From a virus (taxonomy: Duplodnaviria > Caudoviricetes), in IMG/VR virus record IMGVR_UViG_3300035520_001075, positions 64,001 to 128,000 of that record: 64,000 bases of DNA; one strand, given 5' to 3'. Within the stretch, counting starts at the first letter, position 1, and every line of letters starts with the position of its first letter. Below are positions 23,039 to 62,533 of this stretch, one piece after another. Below the pieces are notes generated by a model, which saw nothing but the letters and a program-made list of their open reading frames with translations, was not told the origin of the DNA and did no database searches. The translations under genes and the position numbers were made by a program.

Positions 23039-23040
23039 TT

Positions 23041-26044: not shown

Positions 26045-26129
26045 TCTGAAAACCTCCTTTTCATTTACTTTACTATAATTATATCACAAATAATAGAAAA
26101 AGTCAAGAGATACTCTTGACTTAATCTTT

Positions 26130-26573: not shown

Positions 26574-26574
26574 T

Positions 26575-26988: not shown

Positions 26989-27781
26989 CTCTATCTCCTC
27001 TTCTAATAGGCTTTTCTCTGAATTCTGTAGGAACTGGATAAGGCGGCAAAACGCAAGGAAAACCAGTAGGGATTTCTTTTGGTTGTTCCATTTCCTTAAC
27101 TTTATGCGGCTCAATATGATATGTTGCCACATGATGAAGGTGTGGATAATCTTCTGGTCTTTTCTTTTCTTTATTAAATTCGTAGAACTGACAATCTAAT
27201 TCAGCAGTGAAGTAGGTTGTGTTAATAAGGTCTAACTCTTTTCCGTCTTTTTCTTTTTTCTCCATATCTTCTCTCCAAACTAATAAGTTAATTTGGAAAT
27301 TCTCTACGGTTTCATCGGTTAAAGTATATTTTAAATGATAAAAGATTTCCTTGCCTTCACTAATATCATATTCATTTGTCTTATCGTTCCAAATAGCAGT
27401 TATTATTGCTAAATAATCTTCAAAATCACAGAGGAATTGTATAAAGTCTTTATTGTGATATTTAACTTCTTTTATTGAGCCAGATTCTTTCTTATCCTGT
27501 ATTGTGGCGGCCATATCAAAGGTAAAATAATCAGCATAGTTTTCTAAATCAAATCCTTCAAAGTTTGGCAGCGGTCTTGGAAAATACTTAGATTTGTACC
27601 ATTTAAGCTCTAAATCCTTATTTGGATTACCAAGCAAATTTTCAATTAATGAAGCCGCTTTTAAATAATCCTTACGAATTGAACAAATAGGAAACTTCTT
27701 ACAAGAATAACATTTTGGCTGAACTTTCGTAGGCTCTGGCGGCACATTATTAGCTGGCTTTAAATAACAATTATTTCTCAT
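26978..27781 (-). CDS. Hypothetical protein with Cys/Pro-rich termini
   Basis: ORF with RBS. Confidence 0.6.
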   Translation of the reverse strand: MRNNCYLKPANNVPPEPTKVQPKCYSCKKFPICSIRKDYLKAASLIENLLGNPNKDLELKWYKSKYFPRPLPNFEGFDLENYADYFTFDMAATIQDKKESGSIKEVKYHNKDFIQFLCDFEDYLAIITAIWNDKTNEYDISEGKEIFYHLKYTLTDETVENFQINLLVWREDMEKKEKDGKELDLINTTYFTAELDCQFYEFNKEKKRPEDYPHLHHVATYHIEPHKVKEMEQPKEIPTGFPCVLPPYPVPTEFREKPIRRGDRDEY

Positions 27782-27862
27782 TCTATCACCCCTTTACATA
27801 AAATAAAGAGAAAAATCTCTTCTCTATGTTAAGTAAAAGGGCTTCTTTTAAGTTCTAATATT

Positions 27863-28996
27863 TTAATTATTTTCAATTTGCGACCAATCACAGTCGGCGG
27901 CCGCTTTATCAGGACGTTCTTGGACTATTTTACCATGTCTTAAAGAATAGTGTCCTGATATATATTCAAGCTCCATGCAAGTAAGTTCATAGACCTTATT
28001 AAGGTATTTCTCAGGATTTTCAACAATTCCTTGCTTCATTTCATCTGTAATTCCAGAAATCCAGCCTATACGAATTGGTTTTCCATCTTTCATTACTGAG
28101 AACGAAATTGCACTTGCCCAGCCATAATAATAAGCTTTTGTAATTGGAGTTAAAGCTCTACCTTGGTAATAATCATAGTACATATTTTTATTAATCTTTT
28201 CTCCTGTTTTATCATTAATCCAGTAATTCCAATTCTCAATTTCTTTGCCATTATATTCTTTAGTAGGGCTCTTATATTCTCCATCAATAAAAGCGTCTAT
28301 TGTCTGTTCTATTTCCATTTTAACTTTAAGAGTTTTTCTACTTGTTCTCTTGCCTGGCTCAGCAATTCCGTTCTTTTTGTAAAGTACCATTCCTTCGTCG
28401 CCACGTTTTAAAATTTCACCTAATTCATTCCAAGCCTCTTCTCCTTCTAAATATTTAGCTATATCTATATATTCTTTTCCCTTACTGGCGGCCGCTATAA
28501 AAGTATCTAAATATTTTCTAATTCTATCTTCAAATTTAGTATTGAGTAGACTTTTTCCATTATAAGCCCAGACATCAAACACATAGTAGTGGAGTTTCTC
28601 ACCTTTTTCTTGTCTATCAAGAGCTTTATTAAGTAAACACCCAAGTATTGTTCCTACTTTACGACTTCCTCTTTGTTCAGGAAGATATAATTCTCCAAGT
28701 AAACAAGTTCCATTAGGTAGACTATCAAAGAATTCTTGGCACTGAGGTGTCCATTCTATTTTATTTAAATATCCTCCTTCTACACTTTCAGAGCGGCCTT
28801 GTAATCTCATGTTTCCATTATTATCTTTTATAAATCTTGCATAGTGGCCATCATTCTTTAGAGCTCCAAGGTACTGTTTAGAGAGGAACATTTGTTTTGT
28901 TTCTTCTTTTTTATTACCTTTATAGGATTTAGCAAATGACCAATAACGTTCTGCAGGAAGTTCTTCAAAATCTACATTATCAATTATCATACTCAT
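27863..28996 (-). CDS. ATP-dependent DNA ligase
   Basis: KNDG (motif I), LGELY, YYVFDV, EGMVL, LKVK, SLRH...RPDK. Confidence 0.85.
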   Translation of the reverse strand: MSMIIDNVDFEELPAERYWSFAKSYKGNKKEETKQMFLSKQYLGALKNDGHYARFIKDNNGNMRLQGRSESVEGGYLNKIEWTPQCQEFFDSLPNGTCLLGELYLPEQRGSRKVGTILGCLLNKALDRQEKGEKLHYYVFDVWAYNGKSLLNTKFEDRIRKYLDTFIAAASKGKEYIDIAKYLEGEEAWNELGEILKRGDEGMVLYKKNGIAEPGKRTSRKTLKVKMEIEQTIDAFIDGEYKSPTKEYNGKEIENWNYWINDKTGEKINKNMYYDYYQGRALTPITKAYYYGWASAISFSVMKDGKPIRIGWISGITDEMKQGIVENPEKYLNKVYELTCMELEYISGHYSLRHGKIVQERPDKAAADCDWSQIENN

Positions 28997-29112
28997 ATTT
29001 TATCTTATCTCCTTATTATTATTATTATTATTAATTATATTATATATTATATACTAATGATAATATATAATAACCAATATCAACCAACCTATTTCTTTTC
29101 TCCAAAACTTAT

Positions 29113-29184
29113 GTGAACGGCTACGAGCGGAGCGAGTAGCGTTCACCGCCACTCGATGCACAACTTGTTGTGCATCCTGTGGCG
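29113..29184. repeat. Two adjacent GC-rich hairpins (candidate origin or primosome signal)
   Basis: GTGAAC-GCTAC...GTAGC-GTTCAC and CGCCAC-GATGCACAAC-TT-GTTGTGCATC-GTGGCG, next to a very AT-rich tract. Confidence 0.6.
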
Positions 29185-29289
29185 TTTTGTGTAGGCATAT
29201 CAATGTAGGCACATCAGTATTGAAAAGACGGCATTAAATGTTGTATGCCCTATAGGCTACTGATTTTTTGATATTTCACCCATCACAAG

Positions 29290-29905
29290 AAATAAAAAAA
29301 AGAATTATTGAAATTCTTTATTTCACTTTCAACTATCGTTAATTTAGTTTCTTACGAAATCTCTGATACTTAACAGTTCAATTAACAGTTGCCCTTATAG
29401 CGTTCTCCTTTAAGGGAAAGTATTTTCTAAAACTATCGCCCCAACCTCAACTTTTATTATAATACGTTTATAATAGGTTTTAACTACCTTTTTGACGATT
29501 AAGATTACGTTGAGATTCATAACCGCTTACGAGTTATTAGGCATACTAAATATTTAATCTTAATAGAAAATAAATGTACCCTCAAATACAGAGTAAGAAT
29601 TGTTCTCAAATTCTTAAACGAGTAGATTTACGCTGCAAGGCTTACCAAACCATAAAGACGTAGAAAAACAGAGCCTATCATCTCGACAGTCCCTGTTTCC
29701 CTTTTTGATATCGCAGTGTCTTTTACAGTGTCATCACTGCGTTAAGGTATAATCTAACTTTAATCTCCACAGAGAGTTGAACATTGACCTTAAATTTGAA
29801 TGTACAGTGGTATAATCCTTTTGTTATATCAGTTCCATTCTATTCAATTGTTAGCCGTAATTTACGGAGATAATCAGGTTTTAATAACCAGAAATGAGTT
29901 TTTCT
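29290..29905 (-). ncRNA. Candidate large (about 600 nt) structured non-coding RNA
   Basis: No long ORF; own TTGACT/TATAAT promoter (about 29920-29948); terminator-like hairpin plus U-tract near 29295-29320; several internal stems. Confidence 0.55.
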
Positions 29906-29953
29906 CATTTATTATAATAATTATAACACATTTTTATTTAAAAGTCAAGTAGT

Positions 29954-30508
29954 TTAGTATAATGACTTGGCGGCCGCAGCAGTTTTAATTACAGAATAGA
30001 TTTCTTCCCAATCATTACATCTATGAATAGAGGGGTCAATAACATTCTTATTCCACGGATAAGCAAGACAAATTTTTAATGGTTGAGTTGTACTAAAATT
30101 GGATAAGCAATCATCTATTAAAGCATCACCAATGACCATACTTTTATCATAACAAACAATCAGATGCTTTCTTATATCCATATAAGGGAAAATTCTTTGG
30201 AGATAAGATTCTTTTTTAGGAGCATTCTTCATTTCTGTTTTAGTACAAAAATAAATTTCGTGTCCATCATTAAATAATTTTGCCATATATTTCTGAACAT
30301 TTGGTACTAATTTCATTCTATTCCATGTTCTTTTATCAAGAAAATAATGATAGAATGTTTCCTTATACTGCGGCTTGACAAAATTTTCGATATTATACTT
30401 AGTAATTTTATCTACAGTAAGATTATCTTCACTATCTTCATTATAAACATCTAATACTGCTGTAGTTAAGTCTCCTACTACATTATCAACATCACATAAA
30501 ATTCTCAT
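29954..30508 (-). CDS. 5'(3')-deoxyribonucleotidase (HAD family)
   Basis: CDVDNVV, LIDD, YPWN. Confidence 0.82.
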   Translation of the reverse strand: MRILCDVDNVVGDLTTAVLDVYNEDSEDNLTVDKITKYNIENFVKPQYKETFYHYFLDKRTWNRMKLVPNVQKYMAKLFNDGHEIYFCTKTEMKNAPKKESYLQRIFPYMDIRKHLIVCYDKSMVIGDALIDDCLSNFSTTQPLKICLAYPWNKNVIDPSIHRCNDWEEIYSVIKTAAAAKSLY

Positions 30509-31057
30509 TTAGTCCTCCCATCTTAGCCTAATAATACTACAATTTCTCATTTTTCCATCTACATATCTTTTTGATTCTACTACATCAAAGCCTTTAGAGA
30601 TAATTTCTTTTTTGACAGTATTCCATTTTAAGATATTGCCTCTTTTATCTTTGATTTTAAAGAATTGACTTAATTGGTCTTTATCTTCTTTAAATAATGG
30701 CTTTTCAAGTAAAGAAGTTATCATTCTAATAATTTCTTTTTTGGAAGGCGGCAAAGCCTTTTTTGAGTCAAAAATATTCTGGGCGGCCGCTATCTTATTA
30801 TAGCCATTATTAATAGTATCGTACTTTTCAATATAATATTTTTCTTTATCACTTAGCTCTTCTTCTTCACATAATTCTATAATAGAAAAAGTAAAGTTAT
30901 TAGAATTGTGATAAAGATTAAAATGGAATTCGTCATCAATAGAAGTAGAATATTTACCTTGTTCTAAATGCTCATTCCATCTACGAAAAATATCAATTGA
31001 TTTTCCAATATACTTCTTTTGAGTAGTTTTATTTTCTATACAATAAATACCAATCAT
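30509..31057 (-). CDS. GIY-YIG endonuclease (free-standing)
   Basis: GIYCIEN...YIGKS...RWNEH...GYN. Confidence 0.82.
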   Translation of the reverse strand: MIGIYCIENKTTQKKYIGKSIDIFRRWNEHLEQGKYSTSIDDEFHFNLYHNSNNFTFSIIELCEEEELSDKEKYYIEKYDTINNGYNKIAAAQNIFDSKKALPPSKKEIIRMITSLLEKPLFKEDKDQLSQFFKIKDKRGNILKWNTVKKEIISKGFDVVESKRYVDGKMRNCSIIRLRWED

Positions 31058-31124
31058 TTTTATTGTCCTTTCTTAACTTACTATAATAATTATAACATTA
31101 ATTATAAAAAAAGTCAAAACTTTT

Positions 31125-31637
31125 TCAGTTTTGACCTTTAATAAACAATTCATAAAATGTTGTAGCTTCTTCTTTTAATTCTTCAATGCCTTGTGTATTA
31201 TCAATTTCAATATCATAGCCGCCTTCTCTAACATTATCATCAGCTCTATTACCATAGGATTGTTCTTCTACATCTCTTTTAATAGTAAGAGTTAAAGCAT
31301 TATAGTCTTTAGATAGTCTTTCAATGTCTTTATCTTCTCTACAATCTACAAAAACCGCTTTAGAGCCTAATTTTCTATGTTGTTCTATTTTAGATATCAA
31401 TTCTCTATAAGGGTAATCATTCCATTCTTCTAAAACATCTTTTAGGTCTGCAAGCATTTTTCTATCATTAGCATCTTTTTTCCCATTCCAACCAGCAAAT
31501 AGTGCTACATCTTTAATACTATCAACAATAGAAAGAACTCCCACATCATCTCCATTATTGGCGGCTGCCTCTCTGACAAAGGACTCAAAAAGAGTTTTTC
31601 CTGTTGTTGGTTTTGAATTTACTATAAATACTTTCAT
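31125..31637 (-). CDS. Putative dNMP kinase (P-loop)
   Basis: SKPTTGKT, GWNGKKD..DRKML, VDCRE. Confidence 0.65.
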   Translation of the reverse strand: MKVFIVNSKPTTGKTLFESFVREAAANNGDDVGVLSIVDSIKDVALFAGWNGKKDANDRKMLADLKDVLEEWNDYPYRELISKIEQHRKLGSKAVFVDCREDKDIERLSKDYNALTLTIKRDVEEQSYGNRADDNVREGGYDIEIDNTQGIEELKEEATTFYELFIKGQN

Positions 31638-32623
31638 TCAAAAATTTCCTCCTCTAATTCTACAAATTTTCCATCTATATATTTATAAGGACGTTTAATG
31701 ACTTTATCATCTTTCCAATGAACTTCTATAATTTCATTTCCCCATCTTTCGGCTAAATATTTAGGTATGCTTAAATCATTATAATTGTAATATTCCAATT
31801 TTGGTATATTTGTTTTATTCTTCAAATATAAAGGAAAATAGCTCTTACTGATGATTTCTGGCTCTTCTAAACTGTCATACCACATATAGAATATCATATC
31901 ATTTAAGTCTTGCACTTTTTGAGCAATTTTTTTATCAATCTCAAAATTATTTTCCCAAAAAACAACGTAAATTTTTTTCTCTGTATGCCAAGTATAGCCG
32001 AAACTTTTTATTTCTTCTGAGAGTTCCATTTTATTACAGAAATTAATAATCTTATTCTTAATTTCCAAAATATCTCCATTATTATATCTCTTAGTAATAT
32101 CCTTACTATATTTAATATAACCAATATGATAAAATAATTGGGCCATACTAATTTCATCAGGGGTAAAATTCTTCATTGGATATAGCATATCACATGGGAA
32201 TTTATTAAAAACTTTATTACTTGCAAACACTTTATAGATAGGATTAAAACAAGATATATAAACAATTTTATAACCACAATTTTTTATATATTTCTTTATT
32301 TTAGATAAAGGAATAAATTTTTCTCCTTTTTCTAAATATTTTTTAGTCTTACTCTTTTTTCCATATAAAAATAAATTCATTTTACTTAAAGAAGCAAGAT
32401 TTTTTAAAATCCTATAAGTAATTACACTTAATAAATCATCTTGATATTCCAAAATAAAGATTTTATTTTCAATATCTTTATTATATTTTTCAAGAAAATT
32501 ATTAATAAAACTTGCTATAATTTGATTTGTTTGAGCTTCTAAATTCATACTATCAATTTGATAATCTAAATTTAAGCAATAATGTCTTAATTTCCATTCA
32601 GTAATTTTTTTTATATTATCCAT
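31634..32623 (-). CDS. Hypothetical protein
   Basis: Long ORF with GAGG RBS downstream of a promoter. Confidence 0.6.
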   Translation of the reverse strand: MDNIKKITEWKLRHYCLNLDYQIDSMNLEAQTNQIIASFINNFLEKYNKDIENKIFILEYQDDLLSVITYRILKNLASLSKMNLFLYGKKSKTKKYLEKGEKFIPLSKIKKYIKNCGYKIVYISCFNPIYKVFASNKVFNKFPCDMLYPMKNFTPDEISMAQLFYHIGYIKYSKDITKRYNNGDILEIKNKIINFCNKMELSEEIKSFGYTWHTEKKIYVVFWENNFEIDKKIAQKVQDLNDMIFYMWYDSLEEPEIISKSYFPLYLKNKTNIPKLEYYNYNDLSIPKYLAERWGNEIIEVHWKDDKVIKRPYKYIDGKFVELEEEIFE

Positions 32624-32654
32624 AGTCTTTAGACCTCCTCATCATTTCTTATTA

Positions 32655-32740
32655 TAAGTATAACATGAATTTTTAAGAAAGTCAAGTATTTCGATTATAA
32701 TATTAATCTACTTGACTTTTTTAGAATATTGTGTTATAAT
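32655..32740. promoter_or_regulatory. Divergent SigA/sigma70-type promoter pair at the strand switch
   Basis: Plus strand: TTGACT-N17-TATAAT with extended TG (32712-32740). Minus strand: TTGACT at about 32680-32685 with a TATACT -10. Confidence 0.75.
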
Positions 32741-32764
32741 AATATTATAGGAGATGATGAGAAA

Positions 32765-33028
32765 ATGGAATGGAAAACAATTAAATGTACAATTACAACT
32801 GATATATTTAATCGTATAGCTACCAATTTCAATTATAAAATAAATGAATTAAAAAGTACAATTTTTATAGTAAGTGATGATAGATTAGCTAATGCTAAAA
32901 GTTTATTAGGTCTATTATCTTTACAGTTAAGAACAGGAGATATTATTGAAATAAGATTTGATGATAGTGAGGAAACAAGTAAAATAAAAGAAATAATTTC
33001 TGAAATAGCAGAAATAAAGGAGGGATAA
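32765..33028 (+). CDS. HPr-like protein
   Basis: ANAKSLLGLLSL (Ser46 motif); no His15 motif. Confidence 0.7.
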   Translation: MEWKTIKCTITTDIFNRIATNFNYKINELKSTIFIVSDDRLANAKSLLGLLSLQLRTGDIIEIRFDDSEETSKIKEIISEIAEIKEG

Positions 33029-33033
33029 AATAA

Positions 33034-33318
33034 ATGAACTATAGAATGTATAGTGGCGGCGCACCGTCAGGTAAAAACGTTGTTGAATTAATCAAGGAAG
33101 ATTTAAAGAAAATTGGTTATAATCAAGAACCATTCTATCTTGATTTTATAGGTTTTGAAGGTTCAACAGGTACAGAATTTACAATTAATAAAGATAATAC
33201 TTTAAAAATTCCTAAGTGTGGATATTTTATTACTCCATACACTACAGAAAGACATGAGAGAATTAATTCTTTAATTTTTACAAGTGCTTTTACTGGTAAT
33301 ATTTACTATATAATCTAA
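33034..33318 (+). CDS. Hypothetical protein
   Basis: ORF with GGAGG RBS. Confidence 0.6.
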   Translation: MNYRMYSGGAPSGKNVVELIKEDLKKIGYNQEPFYLDFIGFEGSTGTEFTINKDNTLKIPKCGYFITPYTTERHERINSLIFTSAFTGNIYYII

Positions 33319-33336
33319 TAAACAAGAGGTGATAAT

Positions 33337-35118
33337 ATGACTTTCTTTAATCCTTTTGTAGGCTCTTCAAGTGGCTCTGGAGGTTCTTCTGGCGGCAGCT
33401 CTGGTGCAGATGGAAAATCTGCTTATGAGATTGCTGTTGATAATGGATTTTCAGGCACACAGGCTGAATGGCTTGCTTCTTTAAAGGGTGCTGATGGTAA
33501 GGACGGTACTAACGGAAAAGATGGAAAAGATGGTACTAACGGTACTAATGGTGAAGATGGCGTTGGAATTTCATCAATTAATTTCGTTTCCAGTACTGGC
33601 GGCACAACAGCAGGAATAGCAGGAGCAGCAGATACCTATGAAATTGTGATGACAGATGGAACAAAGACTACTTTTACAGTTGTAAATGGTAATGATTCTT
33701 CTGTTCTCTTAGGTGTTGATGATTTCGATACATACCTTAGAGTTTCCTATGATGAAGGAAAAACTTGGACAAATCTCATCTCACTTGATTCTTTAAAAGG
33801 AAAAGACGGTGAGCAAGGGGTAGACGGCACAACTCCTTTACTGAGAGAAAACGGCGACAACATTGAAGTTAGCTATAATAATGGAAGCACTTGGAAAACT
33901 CTTTTCTCACTTAGCTCTTTAAAAGGCGAACAGGGTGAAAAAGGTGAACAGGGTGAAACTGGTGCAGATGGTGTCTCAATTACAGGTGCTACAGTTAATT
34001 CAGATGGCGATTTGATTATAACTTTCTCAACAGGAACAACTACAAATGCAGGAACAGTTAAGGGTGCAGATGGAACTTCTGTTAAAATAAAAGCTTCAGA
34101 AGACGAATGTACAGATGCAGGCGATGGATATATAGACGAAAACGGACATCTTCAAATTAAAGCCGAATCTGGCGAATTTGTTGATGCTGGAGCTATCAAA
34201 GGCCCAGCAGGTCGTGGAGTTTCACAGATTTATATCTCAGATGATGGACATTTATATGTGCTTTATGATGATTCTGATACTGCGGAAGATTTAGGTAAGG
34301 TAGTAGGTGAAGATGGAGAAGACGGTTATTCTCCAACAATTGAAATATTTAAGCAGGCAGGCGTTTGGAGAATTAATGAATCAAAAGCCCCATTAGCTTA
34401 TTTTGAAATTGATGGTGATACTACTACAAAACCAACAGAATTTGATTTGACAGGACTTGCTACTATTAGTTTTATAAATTGGTGGCAGAATGGTTCAGAC
34501 GATACTTATCCAGTTCAAATAATTTTCTATAAGAATGACGTTGCTATAGAAACTTTTGACGTTGATATGGAGCTGGAAGTTGAATATAAATATGAAGTTG
34601 AAAATTATGATAAGGTTGTTTTGAAAACCACTGGTAGTGATTACGCAACAGGTCAGATTATTTATAATGATGAAACAGCTGAATCTGGTTATTTCCTTAA
34701 GATTACTTATAAAGATGGCGATACTATAAAATCATATTTAACTGAGAGTATTAGGGGTTCTAAGGGTCTTGACGGTAAAGACGCTTATGAAACTTGGCTT
34801 AGTTTAGGTAATGAGGGTACGGAAGAAGAATTCATTGCTTATCTTAGAAATAACTTAATTGTTATTGAAACAGTACTTCAAGCTTCTAAATGGAATGAGG
34901 CAGGACTTTATACAATAACAAATACTAATATAAAGGCTGATAGCGTAATTCACATCGGGCCGCAGGAAGATATAAGCGAAGAACTTTATGACATTGCCGC
35001 CGAAGCAAAAATTATTTGTCAGTCGCAAGAAGATAATAAAATTGTATTGAAAGCATATGGCCCTGTTCCTGAAACAGACATACCAATTTATATTTCAATC
35101 GAAGATATTACAAAATAA
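33337..35118 (+). CDS. Collagen-like repeat tail fibre/structural protein
   Basis: GxxGxx repeats; GKSAYEIAV..GF.GT..EWLASLKG motifs. Confidence 0.75.
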   Translation: MTFFNPFVGSSSGSGGSSGGSSGADGKSAYEIAVDNGFSGTQAEWLASLKGADGKDGTNGKDGKDGTNGTNGEDGVGISSINFVSSTGGTTAGIAGAADTYEIVMTDGTKTTFTVVNGNDSSVLLGVDDFDTYLRVSYDEGKTWTNLISLDSLKGKDGEQGVDGTTPLLRENGDNIEVSYNNGSTWKTLFSLSSLKGEQGEKGEQGETGADGVSITGATVNSDGDLIITFSTGTTTNAGTVKGADGTSVKIKASEDECTDAGDGYIDENGHLQIKAESGEFVDAGAIKGPAGRGVSQIYISDDGHLYVLYDDSDTAEDLGKVVGEDGEDGYSPTIEIFKQAGVWRINESKAPLAYFEIDGDTTTKPTEFDLTGLATISFINWWQNGSDDTYPVQIIFYKNDVAIETFDVDMELEVEYKYEVENYDKVVLKTTGSDYATGQIIYNDETAESGYFLKITYKDGDTIKSYLTESIRGSKGLDGKDAYETWLSLGNEGTEEEFIAYLRNNLIVIETVLQASKWNEAGLYTITNTNIKADSVIHIGPQEDISEELYDIAAEAKIICQSQEDNKIVLKAYGPVPETDIPIYISIEDITK

Positions 35119-35135
35119 AAGAGGTGATTAATTAA

Positions 35136-37136
35136 ATGGCAGTTTTTATAGATTTTCCTTCTGGAACAGGAAATACAGGAGAAAAAGGCGAAAAGGGTGA
35201 TAAGGGCGATACTTTATACTCTGTAAAATTTGATACAGTACTTGCCGCAAGTGATTGGTCATCTGACGGAACTTATAAAATTACTTCTAATGAAATTGAT
35301 GCAGATAGCTTAGTTGACATTGGACTACAGCAGACAATTACAGAAACTCAGATAGATAGTTTCTTAGCAGGAAAAATTGTAGCCACAGACCAAGGCGATG
35401 GCTATATTACTTTGACTGCTTACGACGATGTTCCTACTGAGGATATACCAATTACTGTTGTTATTGAAGGCAGTCAGTTAGAAACAAAAGTTGTTGAAAA
35501 AGTAAGCGGCGGCGAAACAGATTATGGTACTATTGCAGTAAGTAATGACAATGAGATTACTATTTCTACAGCAATTGGTAAAAAGCATACATACACTTTT
35601 GAGACAACTCCTCCAGAGAATCCTACTACTACATATTCTATTGTACACAGAAATCATGTCGGCGAAGTTTTTAATTATGGCGACAAATGCTATGATTATT
35701 ATGAAGTTTTTAATGCGGACGGAACTGCACATACTGATGGAATTTTTGGCGGCCCAATCATAACTGGTACAAGTAAACCTTCTGCCAATGGAGCTTTTAG
35801 TCATGCAGAAGGATATAACTCTACAGCAGATGGAAATTATTCTCATTCTCAGAACCAATGGACAATTGCATCGAGCGATGCTTAGACAACAATGGGTAAA
35901 TTTAATGTAGAAGATACTAACGATACTTATGCTTTAATAATAGGTAATGGTTCTTCTAATTCAAATCGTAGTAATTTATTTGCAATAGGTTGGGATAGCA
36001 AACTCTACGTTAACGATTCTTCTGGAAACTTTGTAGGTATTGATATAACCCAATTATCCTCAAGCTCTGAAGGCTCTGGTTCAACCGTTTCTTGGGCTGG
36101 CACAACAACCTCAGGCGAAGAAATTGGTAAATTGACAGTAGATGGAACAACTTACACTCTCTATTCTTCAACCGCAGACGAAAAAGTTAAGAATATTCCA
36201 AGTACCACAACTAAAGCTTATTTAACAGGCACAAGTAGCACAACCCAGAATACTGGTTATCAATACTTTGATACTAACGTTTATATTGGTGAAGAGTCAG
36301 GCTCTCTCTATGCAACAACATTTTATGGAGCTTTGGACGGCAATGCTTCTACTTCGACAACATCAACTTATGCAACAGGCGTAAAAGTTGTTGAAACAAA
36401 TCCAACATCAATTTCATACTACTATCCATATTGGGGTTCAGAAACCACTACAACTGGAACTTCTGGAGCAACACTTAGAGATAATAGCGGCTTTAAATAT
36501 GCAACAAGAACAGGTACTACAAAACAGAATGGTTTATCTCAGATAATAGTTGGTAATTCCGTTAAATCAGGTACAGCAGGCAATGCGGAAGGTGCTATAG
36601 CTATTTATGGTTCAAGTTCAGGCTATAATTCACTAAGTACTAACAATTCTTCTACAACAAATTATAATAACTATTTACCAGCAGAGTCGGGAACTTTAGC
36701 TCTTTCGACCTCAACACAGGTTATTGAACTTGTTTCTGGAAAGGAAACTTTAATTGTTAATGGTCCAGTCGTCACGGTTATTTTTAACAACCTTTATCTT
36801 TCAGAATATGTTGCAATTGGTTCAGAGTATTTACCAACAACAGACGTAAGTTTCTTACTCCAGACTACTAATAGTGATACTGGTTATTATGAAATAGATG
36901 ATAAATCAACAACTCGTGGATATGTAAGTCTTTTTGAGCCTGCATATGGAACTATTACTTCTTCTGGTTTATCTGATATTATTAGAATAGACCAATCAGT
37001 CACGGCACCACTTGATTCAGAAATAATTTGGTCAGCAGGCGGATTAACTTCTACTCTATTAAAATCTCATTTCTCAGAAAACAATAAAGTAAGAATTACT
37101 GGTTCAGTGACTTACGTTAGAAATTATACAACATAA
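35136..37136 (+). CDS. Tail fibre/receptor-binding-like protein, 1 in-frame TAG, 666 aa
   Basis: Two track ORFs in one frame, joined at TAG 35883-35885: SHAEG...TIASSDA[Q]TTMGKFN...IIGNG. Confidence 0.78.
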
Positions 37137-37151
37137 GCGAGGTGAATAAAA

Positions 37152-38795
37152 TTGGCAGTATTAATACATCAACCATATAATAAAACTGTTATTATAGGGG
37201 AAGGCGGCATTGATACATCAGATGCAACTGCAACTGCCGCCGACATAAAAAGTGGCTTGACGGCTTATGTTAATAATGAGAAAATTACTGGTTCTGCTTA
37301 TACTATAAATCAAGAAGTTAGTATTACTCCAAGTACAGATGACCATTATCTTGTTAGCGGATTTTATAATGGAATTGCAATCCCAGGCGATGAGGATTTA
37401 GTAGCAGAAAATATTAAAGAAGGAGTAGAAATCTTTGGTATTACTGGTACTTTGGTTGAGAAAGGAGAAAACGATATTGATACAACAGATGCAACCGCCA
37501 CAGCAGACGATATTTTACTTAATAAAACCGCTTATGTAAATGGAGAAAAGCTAACTGGTACAATTTTATCACAGGAAGAACAGACCATTGTTCCTTCTAC
37601 AATTGATAAAACGATTAGTTCAGGAATTTACATAGCAGGCAAACAGACAATTAAAGGCGACGAAGATTTAATTGCAGAAAATATCAAAGCAGGGGTTAGC
37701 ATTTTTGACGTAGATGGTACTTTTACTTCTGATGGAAATATTACAGAATACGATATTCCAGAGGGTAAAATTGGTTATGCAAATGGAGAAAAAATTATTG
37801 GTACTGCTTTAACAATTGAAGATGAATTAATTATAACTCCAACCACTTATCCTTTTTATGTTGAAGAAGGAACTTTTGTTCAGACTGGTATAACAGTAAA
37901 GGGTAGTGAAAACCTTCTTGCAGAAAATATTAAAGAAGGGGTCGAAATTTTTGATGTTGTGGGTACTTATTCTCCAGAAGTTAGTATTGAAATTACTGAC
38001 GCAACAGCAACTTCCGCAGATATTTTAGAAGGTAAAATTGCTTATAATAATGATGGTAAGGTTATTGGTACTATGGCTTCTTTAGAAGAGACCATTTACA
38101 CTCCAACCACTTCCAATCTTGTAATTGATTCTGGCGTTTATCTTGCTGGAGACCAGATTATTGAGGGAGATGAGAATTTAGTTGCTGATAATATTAAATC
38201 AGGAATAACAATTTTTGGAATTACTGGTACTTATGAAGGCAGTGGCGGAGAAAGCGAAGAATCTTCTGAACTTGTTTTGTTTGATTCTGTTGATAGCACT
38301 TCAACTGATGATATTGTGAATAAGTATAGTGATTCAATCTATGTTTTCTCTGACTCAAAAGATGATTTCACTCCAATTCAAGCATATGATTATAATGATA
38401 CAACTCCTAATGTGATTTATAATAGTAGCTATGGTGCTGGTATTAATATGAATAAATTATCTATTGGTGCAGGATTTATAAACGATACTCCTATTACAAT
38501 TAAAAAGAGTACCGCTCTTTTAAAAAGAATGCATTATGTATCAACTTGGATTAATCCAACCGTCACGCTTTCCCTTATTGAAGCTTCTTCGTTTGCAGAA
38601 GCTCAGGAAAAAGTAGCTAATTCTGACTATACCATTACTACAACAATAACATTAGCCAATGTAAATAATAATGCTTATAGCTTTACTCAGTTAGAAAATT
38701 TACCAGTTGGAACATTTTATCCAGTAGTACAATGTGCTGAAAAGGCGGCAGGCAATGAAGCATTGATTAAATACTTAGGATTAATATTTATATAA
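37152..38795 (+). CDS. Repeat-containing structural/tail-associated protein
   Basis: Four repeats of DATATxxDI...AY.NGEKI.G and L.AENIK.GV.IF. Confidence 0.65.
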   Translation: MAVLIHQPYNKTVIIGEGGIDTSDATATAADIKSGLTAYVNNEKITGSAYTINQEVSITPSTDDHYLVSGFYNGIAIPGDEDLVAENIKEGVEIFGITGTLVEKGENDIDTTDATATADDILLNKTAYVNGEKLTGTILSQEEQTIVPSTIDKTISSGIYIAGKQTIKGDEDLIAENIKAGVSIFDVDGTFTSDGNITEYDIPEGKIGYANGEKIIGTALTIEDELIITPTTYPFYVEEGTFVQTGITVKGSENLLAENIKEGVEIFDVVGTYSPEVSIEITDATATSADILEGKIAYNNDGKVIGTMASLEETIYTPTTSNLVIDSGVYLAGDQIIEGDENLVADNIKSGITIFGITGTYEGSGGESEESSELVLFDSVDSTSTDDIVNKYSDSIYVFSDSKDDFTPIQAYDYNDTTPNVIYNSSYGAGINMNKLSIGAGFINDTPITIKKSTALLKRMHYVSTWINPTVTLSLIEASSFAEAQEKVANSDYTITTTITLANVNNNAYSFTQLENLPVGTFYPVVQCAEKAAGNEALIKYLGLIFI

Positions 38796-56740: not shown

Positions 56741-57043
56741 ATGGGTGATGAAAAAGTTTTTCGTGTTGTAAAATCAAAATTCATGATGAAAATAACTGAG
56801 CTTGAAGAAGTTGAAGCTAAAGATGAGAATGGTGAAACTACGAAAGAATTAAAAGTAATCAATTCTAAATGGATTCCAATGAGGGGTAAAGAATTTTCTG
56901 AGTCGATGAAAGAAGACTATGACAGAGGAATCAAGCATCAGATTACAATTGTAAAAGATGAACCAGATAAGTTCCAGTTCAATCATATCTACATTCACGC
57001 TCTTGGAAAGAAAGCTTGGACTTATATTAAGAAAGAAGATTAA
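56741..57043 (+). CDS. Hypothetical protein
   Basis: ORF with promoter and GGAGG RBS. Confidence 0.6.
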   Translation: MGDEKVFRVVKSKFMMKITELEEVEAKDENGETTKELKVINSKWIPMRGKEFSESMKEDYDRGIKHQITIVKDEPDKFQFNHIYIHALGKKAWTYIKKED

Positions 57044-57115
57044 AAAGTAAACTACTTTACTTTTTAAGAAAGTTATGGTATAATAATTATAGAAAAGTTA
57101 AAGGAGGGAAAGCAA

Positions 57116-57241
57116 ATGGGAAAAGAAACAACATATGAAGTGGTTTGTGAAAAGTGTGGCAAAGTTTTTGAAGCTCATGATGAGAATTGTGTGCTTTGTA
57201 ATGATTGCTGGGAAAAAATAATTGAAGATGAAGGAAAGTAA
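57116..57241 (+). CDS. Small Zn-ribbon protein (41 aa)
   Basis: GGAGG RBS; CEKC...CNDC. Confidence 0.55.
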   Translation: MGKETTYEVVCEKCGKVFEAHDENCVLCNDCWEKIIEDEGK

Positions 57242-57318
57242 ACTACTTTACTTTTTAAGAAAAATATGATATAATTATTATAGTAAAGATAAAAAAGAGT
57301 TTTATCTTTACTTTAGAT

Positions 57319-57393
57319 TTGGGATTAGTTTAGTCAGTAAAACGCAAGACTTTGGATCTTGAATGGTGTGAGCGTAGCATACATCCCAAGCCA
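57319..57393 (+). tRNA. tRNA-Gln(UUG) with atypical D and T loops
   Basis: TTGGGAT/ATCCCAA acceptor, G73, CCA; CAAGA-CTTTGGA-TCTTG anticodon arm. Confidence 0.82.
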
Positions 57394-57449
57394 CTAAAAA
57401 TTTTTCTTAAAGAAAGAAGCTAAATTAAATTAGCGTATACTTAATATAT

Positions 57450-57589
57450 TGGCAGGTAGACGAATTGGTAAAGTCCTCGGTCGGCTTATAAAAAGTTTTG
57501 GCAGGGGCAGTACCTGCATAAGCCACCATCTAAAACCGAAGACGGAAGGGAGACCTTCCATAGGAGTTCGAAGCTCCTCCTGCCAGCCA
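57450..57589 (+). tRNA. Amber suppressor tRNA (CUA) interrupted by a 46-nt intervening sequence at 57483-57528
   Basis: TGGCAGG/CCTGCCA-G-CCA acceptor; D arm; spliced anticodon arm TCGGT-CTCTAAA-ACCGA; long variable arm; AGGAG-TTCGAAG-CTCCT T arm. Confidence 0.85.
57483..57528 (+). ncRNA. Nested tRNA-like minihelix inside the suppressor anticodon loop
   Basis: GGCTTAT/ATAAGCC 7-bp stem, GCAGG-GGCAGTA-CCTGC 5-bp arm, ACCA end. Confidence 0.82.
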
Positions 57590-57616
57590 TAGTACTTTTT
57601 TGAAAGGAGAATTATA

Positions 57617-58276
57617 ATGAGAACATAGAAGTGTAATATTTGTGGAGAAGTTAAACCAATTGAAGATTTTTATTTTCGCAAAGATTTAAACACATACCGA
57701 AAAAATTGTAAAGAATGCCATAACAGAGGTAGGTCTAAGAAAAATAAGAAAGGCGGCTCATGTGGAATTTACAAAATAGTCAACAATATTAATCACAAAG
57801 TTTATATTGGACAGTCAATTAATATTGAAAAAAGAATTGCTAAACACCAAAGTATGGCAAAAAGCGGAGGTGAAATGCCGTTATATTGTGATATTAGAAA
57901 GTATGGTGTTGAAAATTTCTCATTTGAAATTATTGAATTATGTGATAAAGATTCTTTAGATAAAAAAGAAAGAGAATATATAATTCAATATCAAAGTTTA
58001 GTATCTCAAAATGGATATAACATTGATGAAGGTGGACAGAAAGGTCGAAATTATCACCCAGAAAGTGATGGAATGGCTAAATTAAACTGGGACATGGTTC
58101 ATCAAATTAAACAGCAGCTAATAATAGGCACTCCAAAAAGAGAATTAGCTGAACAATTTGGCGTATCAGTTTATGCAATTGATGATATAAATAGAGGTAA
58201 GTCTTGGAAAGAAGACGATTTAATATATCCAATTTATAGTTTTCAAAAACATAAGTCAAACAATCCAATTGTTTGA
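57617..58276 (+). CDS. Zn-finger + GIY-YIG endonuclease with TAG at codon 4, 219 aa
   Basis: AAGGAG RBS; MRT[TAG]KCNICG...CKEC...GIYKIVN...VYIGQS. Confidence 0.8.
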
Positions 58277-58333
58277 CTTCTATAGTAAATTATGATATAA
58301 TTATTATAGAAAGTTAAAAGAAAGGACTTAAAA

Positions 58334-58588
58334 ATGATTATTTCCGTAAAATTTAAAGATAAAAATAAAATCTTTAAAGGTCGTTCATACGATTATAAGC
58401 TTAATAGTGATGAACGAATTCCAAAAGTTGGTTCAATAATACGAATGATGAACAATGACTATTCTTTCCGCTGTAATGGAACAAGAGTTAGAGTTGAAAA
58501 TGTTCGTAAAGAATCAATTGAAGATAGCGGGCTTGAAGAAATTCGTTATTTGGAATCTTCATTAGAAGAGCCAAGCTTTACTTTATAA
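58334..58588 (+). CDS. Hypothetical protein
   Basis: ORF with promoter and RBS. Confidence 0.55.
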   Translation: MIISVKFKDKNKIFKGRSYDYKLNSDERIPKVGSIIRMMNNDYSFRCNGTRVRVENVRKESIEDSGLEEIRYLESSLEEPSFTL

Positions 58589-58967
58589 CAAAATTGTGGT
58601 ATAATTATTATAGTAAGTGAGGAAAGCAAAATGATTGAATTTCTTTACTTCGCCGCAAAAGCATTGATTATTATATTTGGCATGAAATATTTGTCGAATG
58701 TGTTGATAGCTTTGTTTACTGGCGAAAAATTTAAGTCTAAAATTTTTAACACTTCTCATTTTAAAGATGAGGATTAACTAAGCTAAAAAGAGTAGTTAGT
58801 GTGATTTCCTTTGATTACGCATTCCTTTGTTAGTCTACATTTGTATTCCTCCAAGATATATACATGACACCATCGTACTAACTACTCTTTATATAAATAG
58901 AACAATAGTAGTTTGTTGTAAATATTGTTCGCTCACCGTTGGCGACTAATAAATATACGGTTTAAAT

Positions 58968-59035
58968 GCCATTATAGTGTAGTGGAAAGCACGGGAAATA
59001 TTTCTATTGTGCCAGTTCGATTCTGGCTAATGGCA
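58968..59035 (+). tRNA. tRNA-like element lacking an anticodon loop
   Basis: GCCATTA/TAATGGC acceptor; D arm with TGG; GCCAG-TTCGATT-CTGGC T arm; anticodon arm reduced to GGAAATATTTCT; no CCA. Confidence 0.65.
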
Positions 59036-59399
59036 AACTTAGGTCGGAGTCGCAGAAATTCCTTACCCTGTAGATAAAAGTTAAAAATATTCGGCGGCAA
59101 AATTTAGGAAGTTTTTATTTTGCTTCAAAGAAAAACACAAAGCTTTTGGTTTTTTGGTGATTAGTACTGGTTCACCTTTGCAGGTTCCTTAAAAAAATAA
59201 AAAACAGTACTACGGTGCGTATTCTGTATCAAATGCGTGAGTTTAGTTTCAACTCGGAGGGAAACTACTGAGGACGCTCAGGGTTATAGTACTATAATTT
59301 TCTCTAAAGATTCAGGTTTAGCTTCTGCAGAAGCCCTATCTAATCTTTAGAACTTTTAGTGTCGTGGCGAAAGGGCACTATAAAACTTCTTCGCCTCAT

Positions 59400-59473
59400 G
59401 ACTCATTGGTCAAGTGGTTAAGACGCTATCATTTATGATAGAATCACGGGTTCGTTCCCCGTATGAGTTTCCA
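59400..59473 (+). tRNA. tRNA-Glu-like element with a 6-nt anticodon loop
   Basis: GACTCAT/ATGAGTT acceptor + CCA; TGGTCAAGTGGTTAAGAC D arm; CTATC-ATTTAT-GATAG anticodon arm. Confidence 0.65.
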
Positions 59474-59527
59474 AACCCTTTTAAAATAGGGAACTTAGAA
59501 ATTAAAGTAAAGGAAGGTATAATACAA

Positions 59528-59653
59528 ATGGAAAAAGAAAGAGCAATTAAGGATTTACAGATTAGAATTGATATTTTAAGAGCTAAAGACCCAGTTAGTA
59601 ATGCGAGAATTATTAAGAAGTTAGAAAGAAAAATTAGAAGCCTTGAAGGTTGA
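59528..59653 (+). CDS. Small hypothetical protein (41 aa)
   Basis: GGAAGG RBS; the longer track ORF overlaps the tRNA-like element. Confidence 0.5.
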   Translation: MEKERAIKDLQIRIDILRAKDPVSNARIIKKLERKIRSLEG

Positions 59654-59793
59654 GAAAGGAGAAGAAGTCAAGAATTGAGCTAAAAATTCTTGACTCTTTT
59701 TTTTATTTTAGATTATGGGGCGGACGATATTTGACTTTTAACTTGGGTTATGATATAATTATTATAGTAAGTTAAGAGAGGAGAAAAAAAGTT

Positions 59794-60861
59794 ATGAAAC
59801 TTATTGAGTATATAGTAAATCATAAGGATTGGAAAAATGAATTACAGAAGCCGCCATATTCTTTGTCTATAAAAGAAAAAGGCTCATTAATTATGTTTAA
59901 TTATACTGTTGATTCTATTCCTTCTGAAATCGTTAACGAAGCAAGGGGTTTAATTCTTGAAATTGGAAATAAGATTAATGTAATTCGTTATGGCTTTTAT
60001 CGCTTCTATAACTATGTTGAAGAAGGGGCGGCGGCTTTAAACATGAAGAAAGTCTTTGCAACAGAGAAAATAGATGGGTCAGTTATAATGCTTTATTATT
60101 ATAAAGGAAACTGGTATATTTCAACTCGTAATACTTTCGATGCTTTCGATGCTCCACTTGGAAATTCAGAAAGAACTTTTGGAGATTTAGCTATTGAAGC
60201 AATGAAATCTCAGGGGATTATTCCTTCTCAGCTTTTGCCGCAGAACACTTATGTTTTTGAGTTAGTATCTCCAGAATATCAGCACGTTGTTAATTATGAG
60301 GATACCAAGCTTTATTTCTTAATGGCAAGAAATAATAATACTTATAAAGAAGTCGACGTTAAAACTGACTGGTTAAGACCTCGCCGCATTGAAGTTTCTT
60401 CTTATGAGCAGATTATTAACTATGTTTCTACTTTTGATGGAAAAGAATTTGAGGGCGTTGTGCTTCAGGATAATTATAATAATAGAGTTAAGGTTAAGAA
60501 CTTAAAGTGGTTAAAGCTTCATAAACTACATAATAATGGAAATTTAACTGTAGAGGCAGCTCTTAACTTAGTTGATATGGGTGAGATGGACGAATATTTA
60601 GCCTATTTCCCAGAGAAAAAAGACTTTGTTAATAGAATTCTATTTTGGAAGCAGACATCAATGTCTTATGCCTTATCTCTTGATATGATAGACTTGAAAG
60701 AAAATTATCCTGATAGAAAAGATTATGCAGAAAAAGTGCTCAATTCCTACGCACCTCATGAGCAGTTTTTAATGTTTAAAGCATATGATAATAGAGCTTA
60801 TGAGTATATGACTTCACTATCTAATAAAAAATTAGCAGAATTATATGCAATTGAGCATTGA
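59794..60861 (+). CDS. T4 Rnl1-like ATP-dependent RNA ligase
   Basis: EARGLI, RFYNY, EKIDGS, FELVSP, EGVV, RVKVK; adjacent to Pnk. Confidence 0.85.
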   Translation: MKLIEYIVNHKDWKNELQKPPYSLSIKEKGSLIMFNYTVDSIPSEIVNEARGLILEIGNKINVIRYGFYRFYNYVEEGAAALNMKKVFATEKIDGSVIMLYYYKGNWYISTRNTFDAFDAPLGNSERTFGDLAIEAMKSQGIIPSQLLPQNTYVFELVSPEYQHVVNYEDTKLYFLMARNNNTYKEVDVKTDWLRPRRIEVSSYEQIINYVSTFDGKEFEGVVLQDNYNNRVKVKNLKWLKLHKLHNNGNLTVEAALNLVDMGEMDEYLAYFPEKKDFVNRILFWKQTSMSYALSLDMIDLKENYPDRKDYAEKVLNSYAPHEQFLMFKAYDNRAYEYMTSLSNKKLAELYAIEH

Positions 60862-60929
60862 ACAATATTTGACTTTTATCTCGGATTATGATATAATTAT
60901 TATAGTAAATGAGAAAGAGAGGTTTATTT

Positions 60930-61814
60930 ATGGCTACATTATTTTTAATGATAGGATTGCCTTACTCAGGAAAATCAACACTCGCAGAATCCTACAAAAA
61001 TTATAATAGAACAATGGTAATTTCTTCTGATGAAATTCGTAAGGAATTATTCGGAGACGCAGGCGACCAGTCTAATAACGAGCTTGTTTTTAAAGAATTC
61101 CATACACGAGTTGTCAATGGTTTGAAAATGGGATATAATGTTTTTGCAGATGCAACTAATTTAAATCGTAAGAAGAGAATGGCTTTCTTGGGCTCAATGC
61201 CAAAAGGAACTTTTAAAGTTGGAGTTATGATGGCAACACCTTTAGAGTTAATTTTTGAGCGTATGGAGAAGAGAGAAAGAAGAGTTTCTAAAGAAGTCGT
61301 TATGAGAATGCTGAAACAATTTCAGCCGCCGACTGAAGGAGAGGGCTTTGACTTAATTAATATCGAATTAAATCGCCCTTTTCATTCTTTAGAAAATTAC
61401 TTAGAATTAAATTTAATTCCTCATGATAACCCTCATCACAAGCTTGATGTTGCTGAACATATGTTGGCGACTTCTAACTTAATTAAAGAGTGGTTGGAGG
61501 GAGATTCTTACGACAAAAGAAAAAACAATTTAATGACCGCCGCACGTTATCATGATATTGGGAAATACTTGGTAAAGGAATTTGATGACAAAGGAATTGC
61601 TCATTACTACTATCATGCCAACGTGTCTGCTTACTTATACTTAACTGCAGAGCGTTTCTCTCGTCAGGAAGACGTAATCTATAGAGCTAACTTAATTTAC
61701 GAGCACATGACACCTTTTAACTCGAACTTCCCACCAAAGAGAATGTCGATTTATCCAAAAGAATTTATTGAAGACTTATTACTTTTACATAAGGCAGATG
61801 TTCAGTCTGCCTAA
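60930..61814 (+). CDS. Polynucleotide kinase (AAA_33) fused to an HD phosphohydrolase
   Basis: GLPYSGKST, SSDEIR, DATN; C-terminal H...HDIGK...H...D. Confidence 0.85.
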   Translation: MATLFLMIGLPYSGKSTLAESYKNYNRTMVISSDEIRKELFGDAGDQSNNELVFKEFHTRVVNGLKMGYNVFADATNLNRKKRMAFLGSMPKGTFKVGVMMATPLELIFERMEKRERRVSKEVVMRMLKQFQPPTEGEGFDLINIELNRPFHSLENYLELNLIPHDNPHHKLDVAEHMLATSNLIKEWLEGDSYDKRKNNLMTAARYHDIGKYLVKEFDDKGIAHYYYHANVSAYLYLTAERFSRQEDVIYRANLIYEHMTPFNSNFPPKRMSIYPKEFIEDLLLLHKADVQSA

Positions 61815-61828
61815 GAAATGGAGAATAT

Positions 61829-62533
61829 ATGGAATTAAGTAATGAAAAATATAATCCAGAAGAAATTAAAGCAATTTTAGAAATAATGCTTGGAGATGAT
61901 GTTGAAGGAATTTTTGTAGCACAGGAATTATTAGATGACAATGATGATGAAATGCCAATTTATTCTAACTGGACTACAGCCTATGAAATTCAAGAAACCT
62001 ATTGCTGTAAGATTAGCTGCGGCTGCACTAAGCTTGTGATTATTCCAAGAGATAAGGACTATGTAATTAAATTACCTATTACTCATATTTATGAGGACGA
62101 AGAGATTACAATGCAGTTAGACCAAGAAGAAGATATTTTTGCAGAAGAAAAAGCTTTATATGATAGCAGTACTGAAACACTTCAGAACTTCATTCTTCCA
62201 AACTATTATATCGGGGAGTATCAGGGCATACCAGTTTTTGTTCAAGAAAAAGCTGAATTTGATATAGCAACTCCGCTGTCAGAAAAAGTCTTAGTCTCAG
62301 ACCAAATAGTCAGCTCTATTAGAGAAGAAACAGACTTCTATAGCTTTTCTGTTGCTTTTGTAAAAGATATGGTAAGATATTTTGGACAGATAGAGACAAA
62401 AGAATTAATTGGAGAACTTTTGGATTATGAAATTGTTGATTTACATCGTGGTAATTATGGCTACACTCTTGAAGGTAAACCATGCTTAATTGATATTGGC
62501 GGCTACCGTGAAGATAGGTGGGCGGTTTATTAA
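61829..62533 (+). CDS. Protein-kinase-like fold protein
   Basis: GCTK, VIKLP, DLHRGNYG, IDIG. Confidence 0.6.
   Translation: MELSNEKYNPEEIKAILEIMLGDDVEGIFVAQELLDDNDDEMPIYSNWTTAYEIQETYCCKISCGCTKLVIIPRDKDYVIKLPITHIYEDEEITMQLDQEEDIFAEEKALYDSSTETLQNFILPNYYIGEYQGIPVFVQEKAEFDIATPLSEKVLVSDQIVSSIREETDFYSFSVAFVKDMVRYFGQIETKELIGELLDYEIVDLHRGNYGYTLEGKPCLIDIGGYREDRWAVY

Follow-up and report, generated by a model that had tools for sequence, protein, structure and literature searches.

A tRNA-shaped insert in the only amber suppressor tRNA gene of a TAG-recoded phage, with Rnl1 ligase and Pnk-HD genes that may permit its removal

To our knowledge, every characterised tRNA intron of bacteria and phages is a self-splicing group I ribozyme. 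Phage T4 repairs tRNA with its RNA ligase Rnl1 and the healing enzyme Pnkp, countering the anticodon nuclease PrrC, and a polynucleotide kinase joined to an HD domain, in place of T4 Pnkp, has been described for Rhodothermus phage RM378. Lak megaphages carry 'enigmatic' tRNA introns, one of which possibly encodes a tRNA of its own (Devoto et al. 2019, PMC6784885), and other gut phages use code 15, in which TAG is recoded, while their early genes keep to the standard code (Borges et al., bioRxiv 10.1101/2021.08.26.457843). Here we analysed a window of 64,000 nucleotides (nt), bases 64001-128000 of the 157,483-bp genome (31% GC, direct terminal repeats) of a Caudoviricetes gut phage (IMG/VR record IMGVR_UViG_3300035520_001075), in which a split tRNA(CUA) gene is followed by genes for an Rnl1-type ligase and a kinase-HD fusion (Pnk-HD). 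This genome is called G000 below, and other G and L numbers denote comparison genomes and loci. A first-pass annotation had proposed that the two enzymes mature the suppressor and so act as a timing switch for the genetic code; the observation as such was confirmed, and the interpretation was supported in part. We propose that the sole amber suppressor carries a mobile, tRNA-shaped intron which would be cut by tRNA end-processing nucleases and rejoined by Rnl1, with the resulting dependence as a by-product, and we put the probability of this reading at roughly one half.

The split suppressor tRNA and its insert

Neither ARAGORN with default settings nor the Rfam tRNA model recognised the tRNA(CUA) gene, and default ARAGORN reported in this region only the preceding tRNA-Gln(UUG) and an odd tRNA at 59400-59473. 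When introns were allowed, ARAGORN found the split gene with its 46-nt insert at the positions given before (Table 1). The insert folds into a 7-bp stem (GGCTTAT/ATAAGCC), an 11-nt linker and a 5-bp stem (GCAGG/CCTGC) with a 7-nt loop (GGCAGTA), the 3' strand of the shorter stem continuing directly into that of the longer one, and ends in ACCA; this geometry is that of a tRNA acceptor/T-arm minihelix with discriminator base and CCA. Deletion of the insert, from its first base through the CCA, left a canonical 7-nt loop (C/UCUAAA, junction at the stroke) on a 5-bp stem, with U33 and a purine at position 37. No match to the Intron_gpI model was obtained in 57200-59800 at E-values up to 1, and the same model does detect a group I intron elsewhere in the window (12648-12876, minus strand, Rfam 75 bits). 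Group I introns take at least about 200 nt, and the insert is far too small for self-splicing. A bulge-helix-bulge junction is also absent, as there are no 3-nt bulges around a 4-bp helix, and the junctions lie 1 nt (5') and 6 nt (3') from the anticodon stem. Because the 46 nt hold no ribozyme core, proteins would be needed both to cut and to join.

The phage reads TAG extensively, the longest open frame growing from 888 to 1955 codons once TAG is read through. In the virion region TAG makes up 2.3-7.2 of every 1000 codons, compared with 0.4-0.8 in the replication region; most TAGs of the genome belong to genes for virion proteins and homing endonucleases, and almost every early or replication gene is free of it. 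In the window, TAG-bearing genes encode a 1256-amino acid (aa) protein, a leucine-rich repeat (LRR) protein, a CmpB-like membrane protein, ThyX and two GIY-YIG nucleases. In the suppressor, an acceptor stem of Gln type (U1-A72, G2-C71, G3-C70, G73) is unusually joined to a long variable arm, giving a class II shape; the helix of this arm covaries between the window and an orthologue in locus L016. At 87 aligned TAG positions, Q was the commonest residue of relatives (20), ahead of K (10), N (7) and TAG itself (7). As the three acceptor pairs and the excess of Q both favour glutamine, TAG most likely stands for Gln in this phage. Serine identity, hinted at by the long variable arm and G73, was considered and dropped on the same grounds.

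One might suspect that the insertion has killed the suppressor, with readthrough provided by a host tRNA, by near-cognate decoding or by a missed gene, and the presence of two other odd tRNA-like genes nearby would fit this. However, both exons are intact, the spliced loop is perfect, and the 5' exon stretch is 94.7% identical to the L016 suppressor (36 of 38 aligned nt). All relatives at 98.7% identity keep the same split gene. Furthermore, at least 95 in-frame TAGs were counted in non-overlapping open reading frames (ORFs) of at least 100 codons, virion-region genes among them, and neither ARAGORN nor the Rfam tRNA model found another CUA tRNA anywhere in the genome. A dead gene is thus very improbable.

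The insert is optional among relatives. L016 is syntenic with the window, the suppressor being followed by a homologue of an 84-aa ORF and then by a small membrane ORF with the shared promoter, and its suppressor (L016:209-302) lacks the insert, the alignment gap being exactly the 46 nt; it also differs in having C33 and A73, where the window has U33 and G73. L016 also lacks the gene for a free-standing GIY-YIG homing endonuclease that in the window begins 28 nt past the end of tRNA(CUA). This endonuclease is 37% identical (1e-23) to one encoded inside a nested insert of locus L054. Since L016 is without both the insert and the GIY-YIG gene, and since kin of the latter reside within the L054 insert, the pattern carries the signature of a selfish mobile intron, and we read the insert as one that came with the adjacent endonuclease. 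The endonuclease in turn would depend on the neighbouring suppressor, as its fourth codon is TAG.

In the surroundings of 82 Rnl1 homologues from IMG/VR and other assemblies, more split tRNAs were detected with ARAGORN. A nested-minihelix scanner, which left the tail after the acceptor stem free (0-5 nt) and had each spliced product checked by ARAGORN, gave 21 nested inserts (one of them, in L083, probably a false positive), and 18 of the 21 end in NCCA. The rule is not circular, because most of the smaller inserts (38-143 nt) found by ARAGORN without the minihelix criterion fit the same frame. Inserts of this type also interrupt ordinary tRNAs, namely Leu(UAA), Lys(UUU), Ile(UAU), Thr(UGU), Glu and Gln, and larger ones of 445, 465 and 862 nt keep the frame and have ORFs placed after the 5' strand and before the T arm; that of the 862-nt L054 insert encodes the GIY-YIG endonuclease mentioned above. 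The intron boundaries drawn by ARAGORN itself, which count the CA of CCA as exon and lead to Leu-CAA, Met-CAU and Gln-UUG, were ruled out by intron-less orthologues and canonical loops. A split suppressor was also found in G038, a complete 161-kb genome of a relative (proteins 30-74% identical) that is strongly TAG-recoded, its long-ORF codons rising from 22,909 to 37,219 with TAG readthrough. Its sole CUA candidate is a class I tRNA with U1-A72, in which a different minihelix is inserted after position 35 and to which ARAGORN assigns the anticodon CAA instead of CUA. The NCCA rule is confirmed for G038 by L054 and L063, in which orthologues of this suppressor are without an intron and show the loop CUCUAAA. 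A scan, independent of the ligase, for the T-loop pattern GGGGCAGYACC-N10-ACCA yielded only four new insert-bearing records (L098, L103, L122 and L133), of which one is near-complete and two are fragments, too few for statistics.

Some related RNAs depart from the minihelix form. In IMG/VR loci L091-L210 the T-loop GGCAGYA recurs, with a perfect 5-bp stem around 117 of 121 pattern matches; among them are free-standing full-length phage tRNAs and many minihelices or tRNA-like RNAs of larger size that terminate in CTCCACCA. The insert of a tRNA-Lys(UUU) at L076:4450-4524 is a whole 75-nt cloverleaf-like tRNA with all four arms and an ACCA end. Two further tRNA-like inserts of 71 nt (L021:10412-10482 and L025:20247-20317) have no CCA, and there the excised piece must extend 2 nt beyond the acceptor stem to leave a 7-nt loop, so that their 3' cut rule differs.

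Ligase, healing enzyme and promoters

The assignment of both enzyme genes, which lie 2-3 kb from the tRNA, was borne out by Pfam and structure-profile matches. The ligase matched RNA_lig_T4_1 (PF09511; 7e-14, 52.6 bits, cut-off 28.3) and PHROG 562 (8e-38), and a profile of its family (24 homologues) matched the T4 Rnl1 structures 2C5U (7e-24) and 5TT6 (about 1e-23). Motif I (K92-x-D94-G95), E156, E220-G221 and K233-x-K235 are invariant in the 24 homologues, and motifs I, III, IV and V line up with KEDG, FEFVAP, EGYVA and KIK of the T4 enzyme; towards the C-terminal domain that gives T4 Rnl1 its tRNA specificity, the profile alignment reaches residue 331 of 375 at low similarity. For Pnk-HD, a P-loop (GLPYSGKST), an AAA_33 kinase domain (1e-21) and PHROG 505 (polynucleotide kinase) were found, and the kinase matched the structures of Clostridium thermocellum Pnkp kinase (4GP7, 1e-9) and Pnkp1 (4XRP). 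Its C-terminal HD phosphoesterase (PF01966, 1.4e-7) carries a YHDIGK motif and spans residues 181-297, numbered from the longest ORF, which begins at 60909. As the ATG at 60909 falls inside a conserved promoter motif, the start at 60930, which has a ribosome-binding site, is taken to be the right one.

A separate promoter for each enzyme gene had been predicted, and this holds as well. They belong to a family with 39 matches in the genome to a nearly invariant 14-nt -10 core, TATAATTATTATAG (one substitution allowed), most of which show a TTGACT/TTTACT-like -35 box and an extended -10 box (TGnTATAAT). The cores start at 57270 for the tRNA pair, at 59754 for rnl1 and at 60892 for pnk-HD. Nearly all matches, which run over window positions 3958-60892 and beyond, lie in the replication and small-gene regions and only one in the virion region (genome position 490). 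The consensus, which is of the type used by host sigma-A/sigma-70 polymerase, suggests early genes. As stated earlier, rnl1 and pnk-HD are open under the standard code and thus free of TAG. This is only weakly informative about a switch, because the two genes would be expected to hold about 2.6 TAGs if they had them as often as late genes do, and almost every early or replication gene lacks TAG too.

Table 1. Features of the suppressor and ligase region, in window coordinates (aa, amino acids).
Feature	Position	Strand	Evidence or details
Early-type promoter of tRNA-Gln, split suppressor and GIY-YIG gene	57248-57283	+	TTACTT -35, TGnTATAAT extended -10, TATTATAG
tRNA-Gln(UUG), uninterrupted	57319-57393	+	ARAGORN; Rfam tRNA 43 bits
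tRNA(CUA), split	57450-57589	+	ARAGORN, introns allowed
5' exon	57450-57482	+	acceptor strand U1, G2, G3; D arm; anticodon stem TCGGT; C32
Insert, 46 nt	57483-57528	+	sequence; fold; scanner and ARAGORN on spliced product; absence in L016 orthologue
3' exon	57529-57589	+	U33-CUA-AA; anticodon stem ACCGA; variable arm GGAAGG/CCTTCC; T arm; acceptor strand; G73; encoded CCA
Free-standing GIY-YIG homing endonuclease	57617-58276	+	Pfam GIY-YIG 7e-10; TAG as codon 4 (57626-57628)
Early-type promoter of rnl1	59731-59767	+	promoter-family match
Rnl1-type ATP-dependent RNA ligase, 355 aa	59794-60861	+	PF09511; motif columns; T4 Rnl1 structures; PHROG 562
Early-type promoter of pnk-HD	60870-60905	+	promoter-family match
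Pnk-HD, 294 aa	60930-61814	+	AAA_33 and HD; 4GP7; PHROG 505

Rnl1 and a kinase form a widespread pair, the kinase being found within 10 kb at 49 of the 82 Rnl1 loci and fused to an HD domain in 38 of these 49. In relatives (L004:12531-13331, L006-L008) a Thg1-like gene stands between rnl1 and pnk-HD, and DUF2828 and VWA proteins, one of them broken by a LAGLIDADG-like ORF, adjoin rnl1; this neighbourhood suggests a larger tRNA/RNA-repair region. Among deposited phages, tblastn with Rnl1 gave 19 distant records only, RM378 having an Rnl1 homologue by the same method, and blastn with the region and a split tRNA-Leu against 50,697 records gave nothing useful.

Between the tRNA and the ligase gene, further RNAs were noted. 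A tRNA-like element (58968-59035; Rfam tRNA 48.9 bits, no ARAGORN call) has normal acceptor, D and T arms, an anticodon arm cut down to about 14 nt and no encoded CCA. The odd tRNA at 59400-59473 has an encoded CCA, is kept in near-identical relatives and shows an anticodon loop, AUUUAU, on a 5-bp stem; ARAGORN names no anticodon for it because the loop has only 6 nt. Between these two elements sits an abundant intergenic RNA of about 400 nt (58983-59395), covered in three animal-gut metatranscriptomes at a depth of 36-73, compared with 2-4 on rnl1 and pnk; it had no Rfam match, no homologue among the fetched loci and a fold z-score of -1.6.

A possible splicing route and its alternatives

Acceptor/T-arm minihelices that end in NCCA are substrates of bacterial RNase P, whose cut gives the upstream piece a 3'-OH; an RNase Z-type cut leaves a 5'-phosphate on the downstream piece; and T4 Rnl1 seals 3'-OH/5'-phosphate nicks in tRNA anticodon loops. 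Based on this chemistry we infer which nucleases cut the insert, which ends they leave and that Rnl1 is the ligase used. The intron, which resembles the upper half of a tRNA in that its 7-bp acceptor stem stacks on a T arm and its 3' end is ACCA, would be cut by RNase P before its first base and by a 3'-end nuclease after its CCA, while the exon halves would remain paired with a nick between C32 and U33. Phage Rnl1 would then seal this nick, and Pnk-HD would be required to heal the ends beforehand only if the 3' cut left a 5'-OH. TAG decoding would thereby come to depend on the phage ligase, which we consider plausible for this phage, and the Rnl1/Pnk-HD repair cassette would let such introns persist.

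The distribution of ligases fits this route, as all four near-complete insert-bearing genomes (G000, G038, G039 and G022) encode an ATP-dependent RNA ligase. It is Rnl1 in the first three; G022 (92% complete, three nested inserts), the only near-complete genome found independently of the ligase, has no Rnl1 but an Rnl2-type ligase (PF09414) beside Pnk-HD. Pnk-HD was present in all three genomes checked for it (G000, G038 and G022). PF09511 was not detected in 37 control records, in a search in which positive controls were; among the controls that were at least 90% complete and had no known insert, it was found in 0 of 7 and PF09414 in 2 of 7. RtcB was found in none of five phage genomes tested. 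Co-occurrence is thus consistent with sealing by a ligase, although statistically weak. Maturation of the suppressor by the two enzymes, as originally put forward, is supported in part: no other TAG-reading tRNA was found, the insert is too small to splice itself, the RNase P-type cuts predicted from its shape would give ends joinable only by a 3'-OH/5'-phosphate ligase such as Rnl1, and a ligase is present in each near-complete insert genome.

Several points weigh against the proposed route. The cut after the CCA is its weakest link; RNase Z of Firmicutes is inhibited by CCA. Most insert-bearing genomes were found through Rnl1 in the first place, and the sole independent near-complete one has an Rnl2-type ligase, a family that also occurs in two of the seven near-complete controls. 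Relatives with the split tRNA and without any RNA ligase had been named as a counter-sign: none of the four near-complete genomes is of this kind, and the insert-bearing G008, 42% complete, shows no ligase. For about 70 of the 82 Rnl1 loci, the nearest 10 kb hold no nested insert, so the cassette must have another main role. Contigs from three gut metatranscriptomes cover parts of 57000-62000, with tRNA(CUA) outside the coverage and no joints, and are thus silent on splicing.

The same observations could mean that Rnl1 and Pnk-HD serve ordinary repair only, mending tRNAs cut by host anticodon nucleases as in T4, while other enzymes of host or phage splice the insert and the proximity reflects the usual clustering of tRNA-related genes. 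The conserved pairing of the two enzymes, the scarcity of nested inserts near Rnl1, the many Rnl1 loci with intact CUA suppressors and the Thg1-like genes in the cluster of relatives, which fit a tRNA-repair toolkit, all agree with this, as does G022, which splices, if at all, without Rnl1. On the other hand, no near-complete insert-bearing genome lacks an ATP-dependent RNA ligase, and we know of no bacterial enzyme outside this ligase superfamily that joins 3'-OH/5'-phosphate tRNA halves; RtcB requires different ends and is missing from the phages tested. Repair as the only function is a serious but rather unlikely alternative.

More doubtful is the idea that the insert has been kept as a timer, so that TAG decoding awaits the phage ligase and the lysis, tail and nuclease genes are delayed. 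It could draw on the fact that the sole suppressor is the split tRNA, on the TAG-free enzyme genes together with the concentration of TAG in virion genes and homing endonucleases, and on the unrelated suppressors of G000 and G038 being split by different inserts at different loop positions. However, related Rnl1-bearing phages have orthologous suppressors without an insert (L016; L054 and L063), other phages have at least 11 intact CUA tRNAs no further than 10 kb from rnl1, the same insert type occurs in ordinary tRNAs, and the insert arrived with a homing endonuclease. With inserts in about 4 of 11 G038 tRNAs, a split suppressor would also be expected by chance. Moreover, tRNA, rnl1 and pnk-HD use one early-type promoter, and any added delay would therefore amount only to the time of ligase synthesis. 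The proposed switch in TAG readthrough was thus not supported, and an evolved timer appears improbable. We are similarly sceptical of a variant in which splicing by RNase P, a 3' nuclease and Rnl1 gates the decoding of TAG in virion genes and homing endonucleases and has been co-opted by selection as a delay element. The comparative data point to the by-product reading, a mobile intron tolerated in a phage that carries a repair ligase anyway.

Comparison with known systems

If the proposed route is correct, the removal of a tRNA-shaped intron by ordinary tRNA-trimming enzymes, with a phage ligase closing the nick, would amount to a new way of splicing, and phage Rnl1 would gain a second role beside anti-defence repair. 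In the literature we found no paper on protein-dependent tRNA splicing in bacteria or phages, on a mechanism for tRNA-like introns or on a link of such introns to Rnl1. The locus would make a convenient test bed, since the interrupted tRNA is an amber suppressor and L016 offers a natural intron-less allele. For annotation, suppressor tRNAs of recoded phages can hide behind such inserts, in which case ARAGORN misassigns the anticodon.

As in the code 15 gut phages (Borges et al., bioRxiv 10.1101/2021.08.26.457843), TAG piles up here in genes for late functions, lysis and homing endonucleases, is missing from early genes and is read by a phage-encoded suppressor. Unlike there, the suppressor of our phage has both an acceptor stem of Gln type and a long variable arm, and would require an added, protein-dependent maturation step. 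The Lak introns are likewise short inserts in tRNA genes of TAG-recoded gut phages, with insert-plus and insert-free alleles and with tRNAs missed by bacterial tRNA finders; that paper (PMC6784885) offers no mechanism, names no ligase and describes no split suppressor. In contrast, at the present locus it is the sole CUA suppressor that is split, an NCCA excision rule applies, some members bear homing endonucleases, and a ligase/healing cassette adjoins.

With T4 repair, the locus shares the ligase family and its catalytic motifs, a partner with 5'-kinase and phosphoesterase activity and, as proposed here, an anticodon-loop nick as substrate. It differs in that the healing enzyme is a kinase-HD and not a kinase-HAD protein, and in that the break would come from processing of a genomic insert instead of a defence nuclease. 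Fungal and plant splicing by Trl1 is similar in being protein-dependent and in using the same three activities (Rnl1-like ligase, kinase, phosphodiesterase), and T4 Rnl1 and Pnkp can stand in for Trl1 in yeast. In the phage, however, there is neither a splicing endonuclease nor a bulge-helix-bulge, the splice sites would be set by the tRNA-like shape, and the end of the 5' exon would be a plain 3'-OH from RNase P. Finally, like the group I introns in anticodon loops of bacterial and phage tRNAs, the insert appears to be mobile, sometimes with a homing endonuclease, is optional among relatives, hides the suppressor from tRNA finders and is probably tolerated and not regulatory; unlike them, it has 46 nt and no ribozyme core, so that proteins must cut and join.

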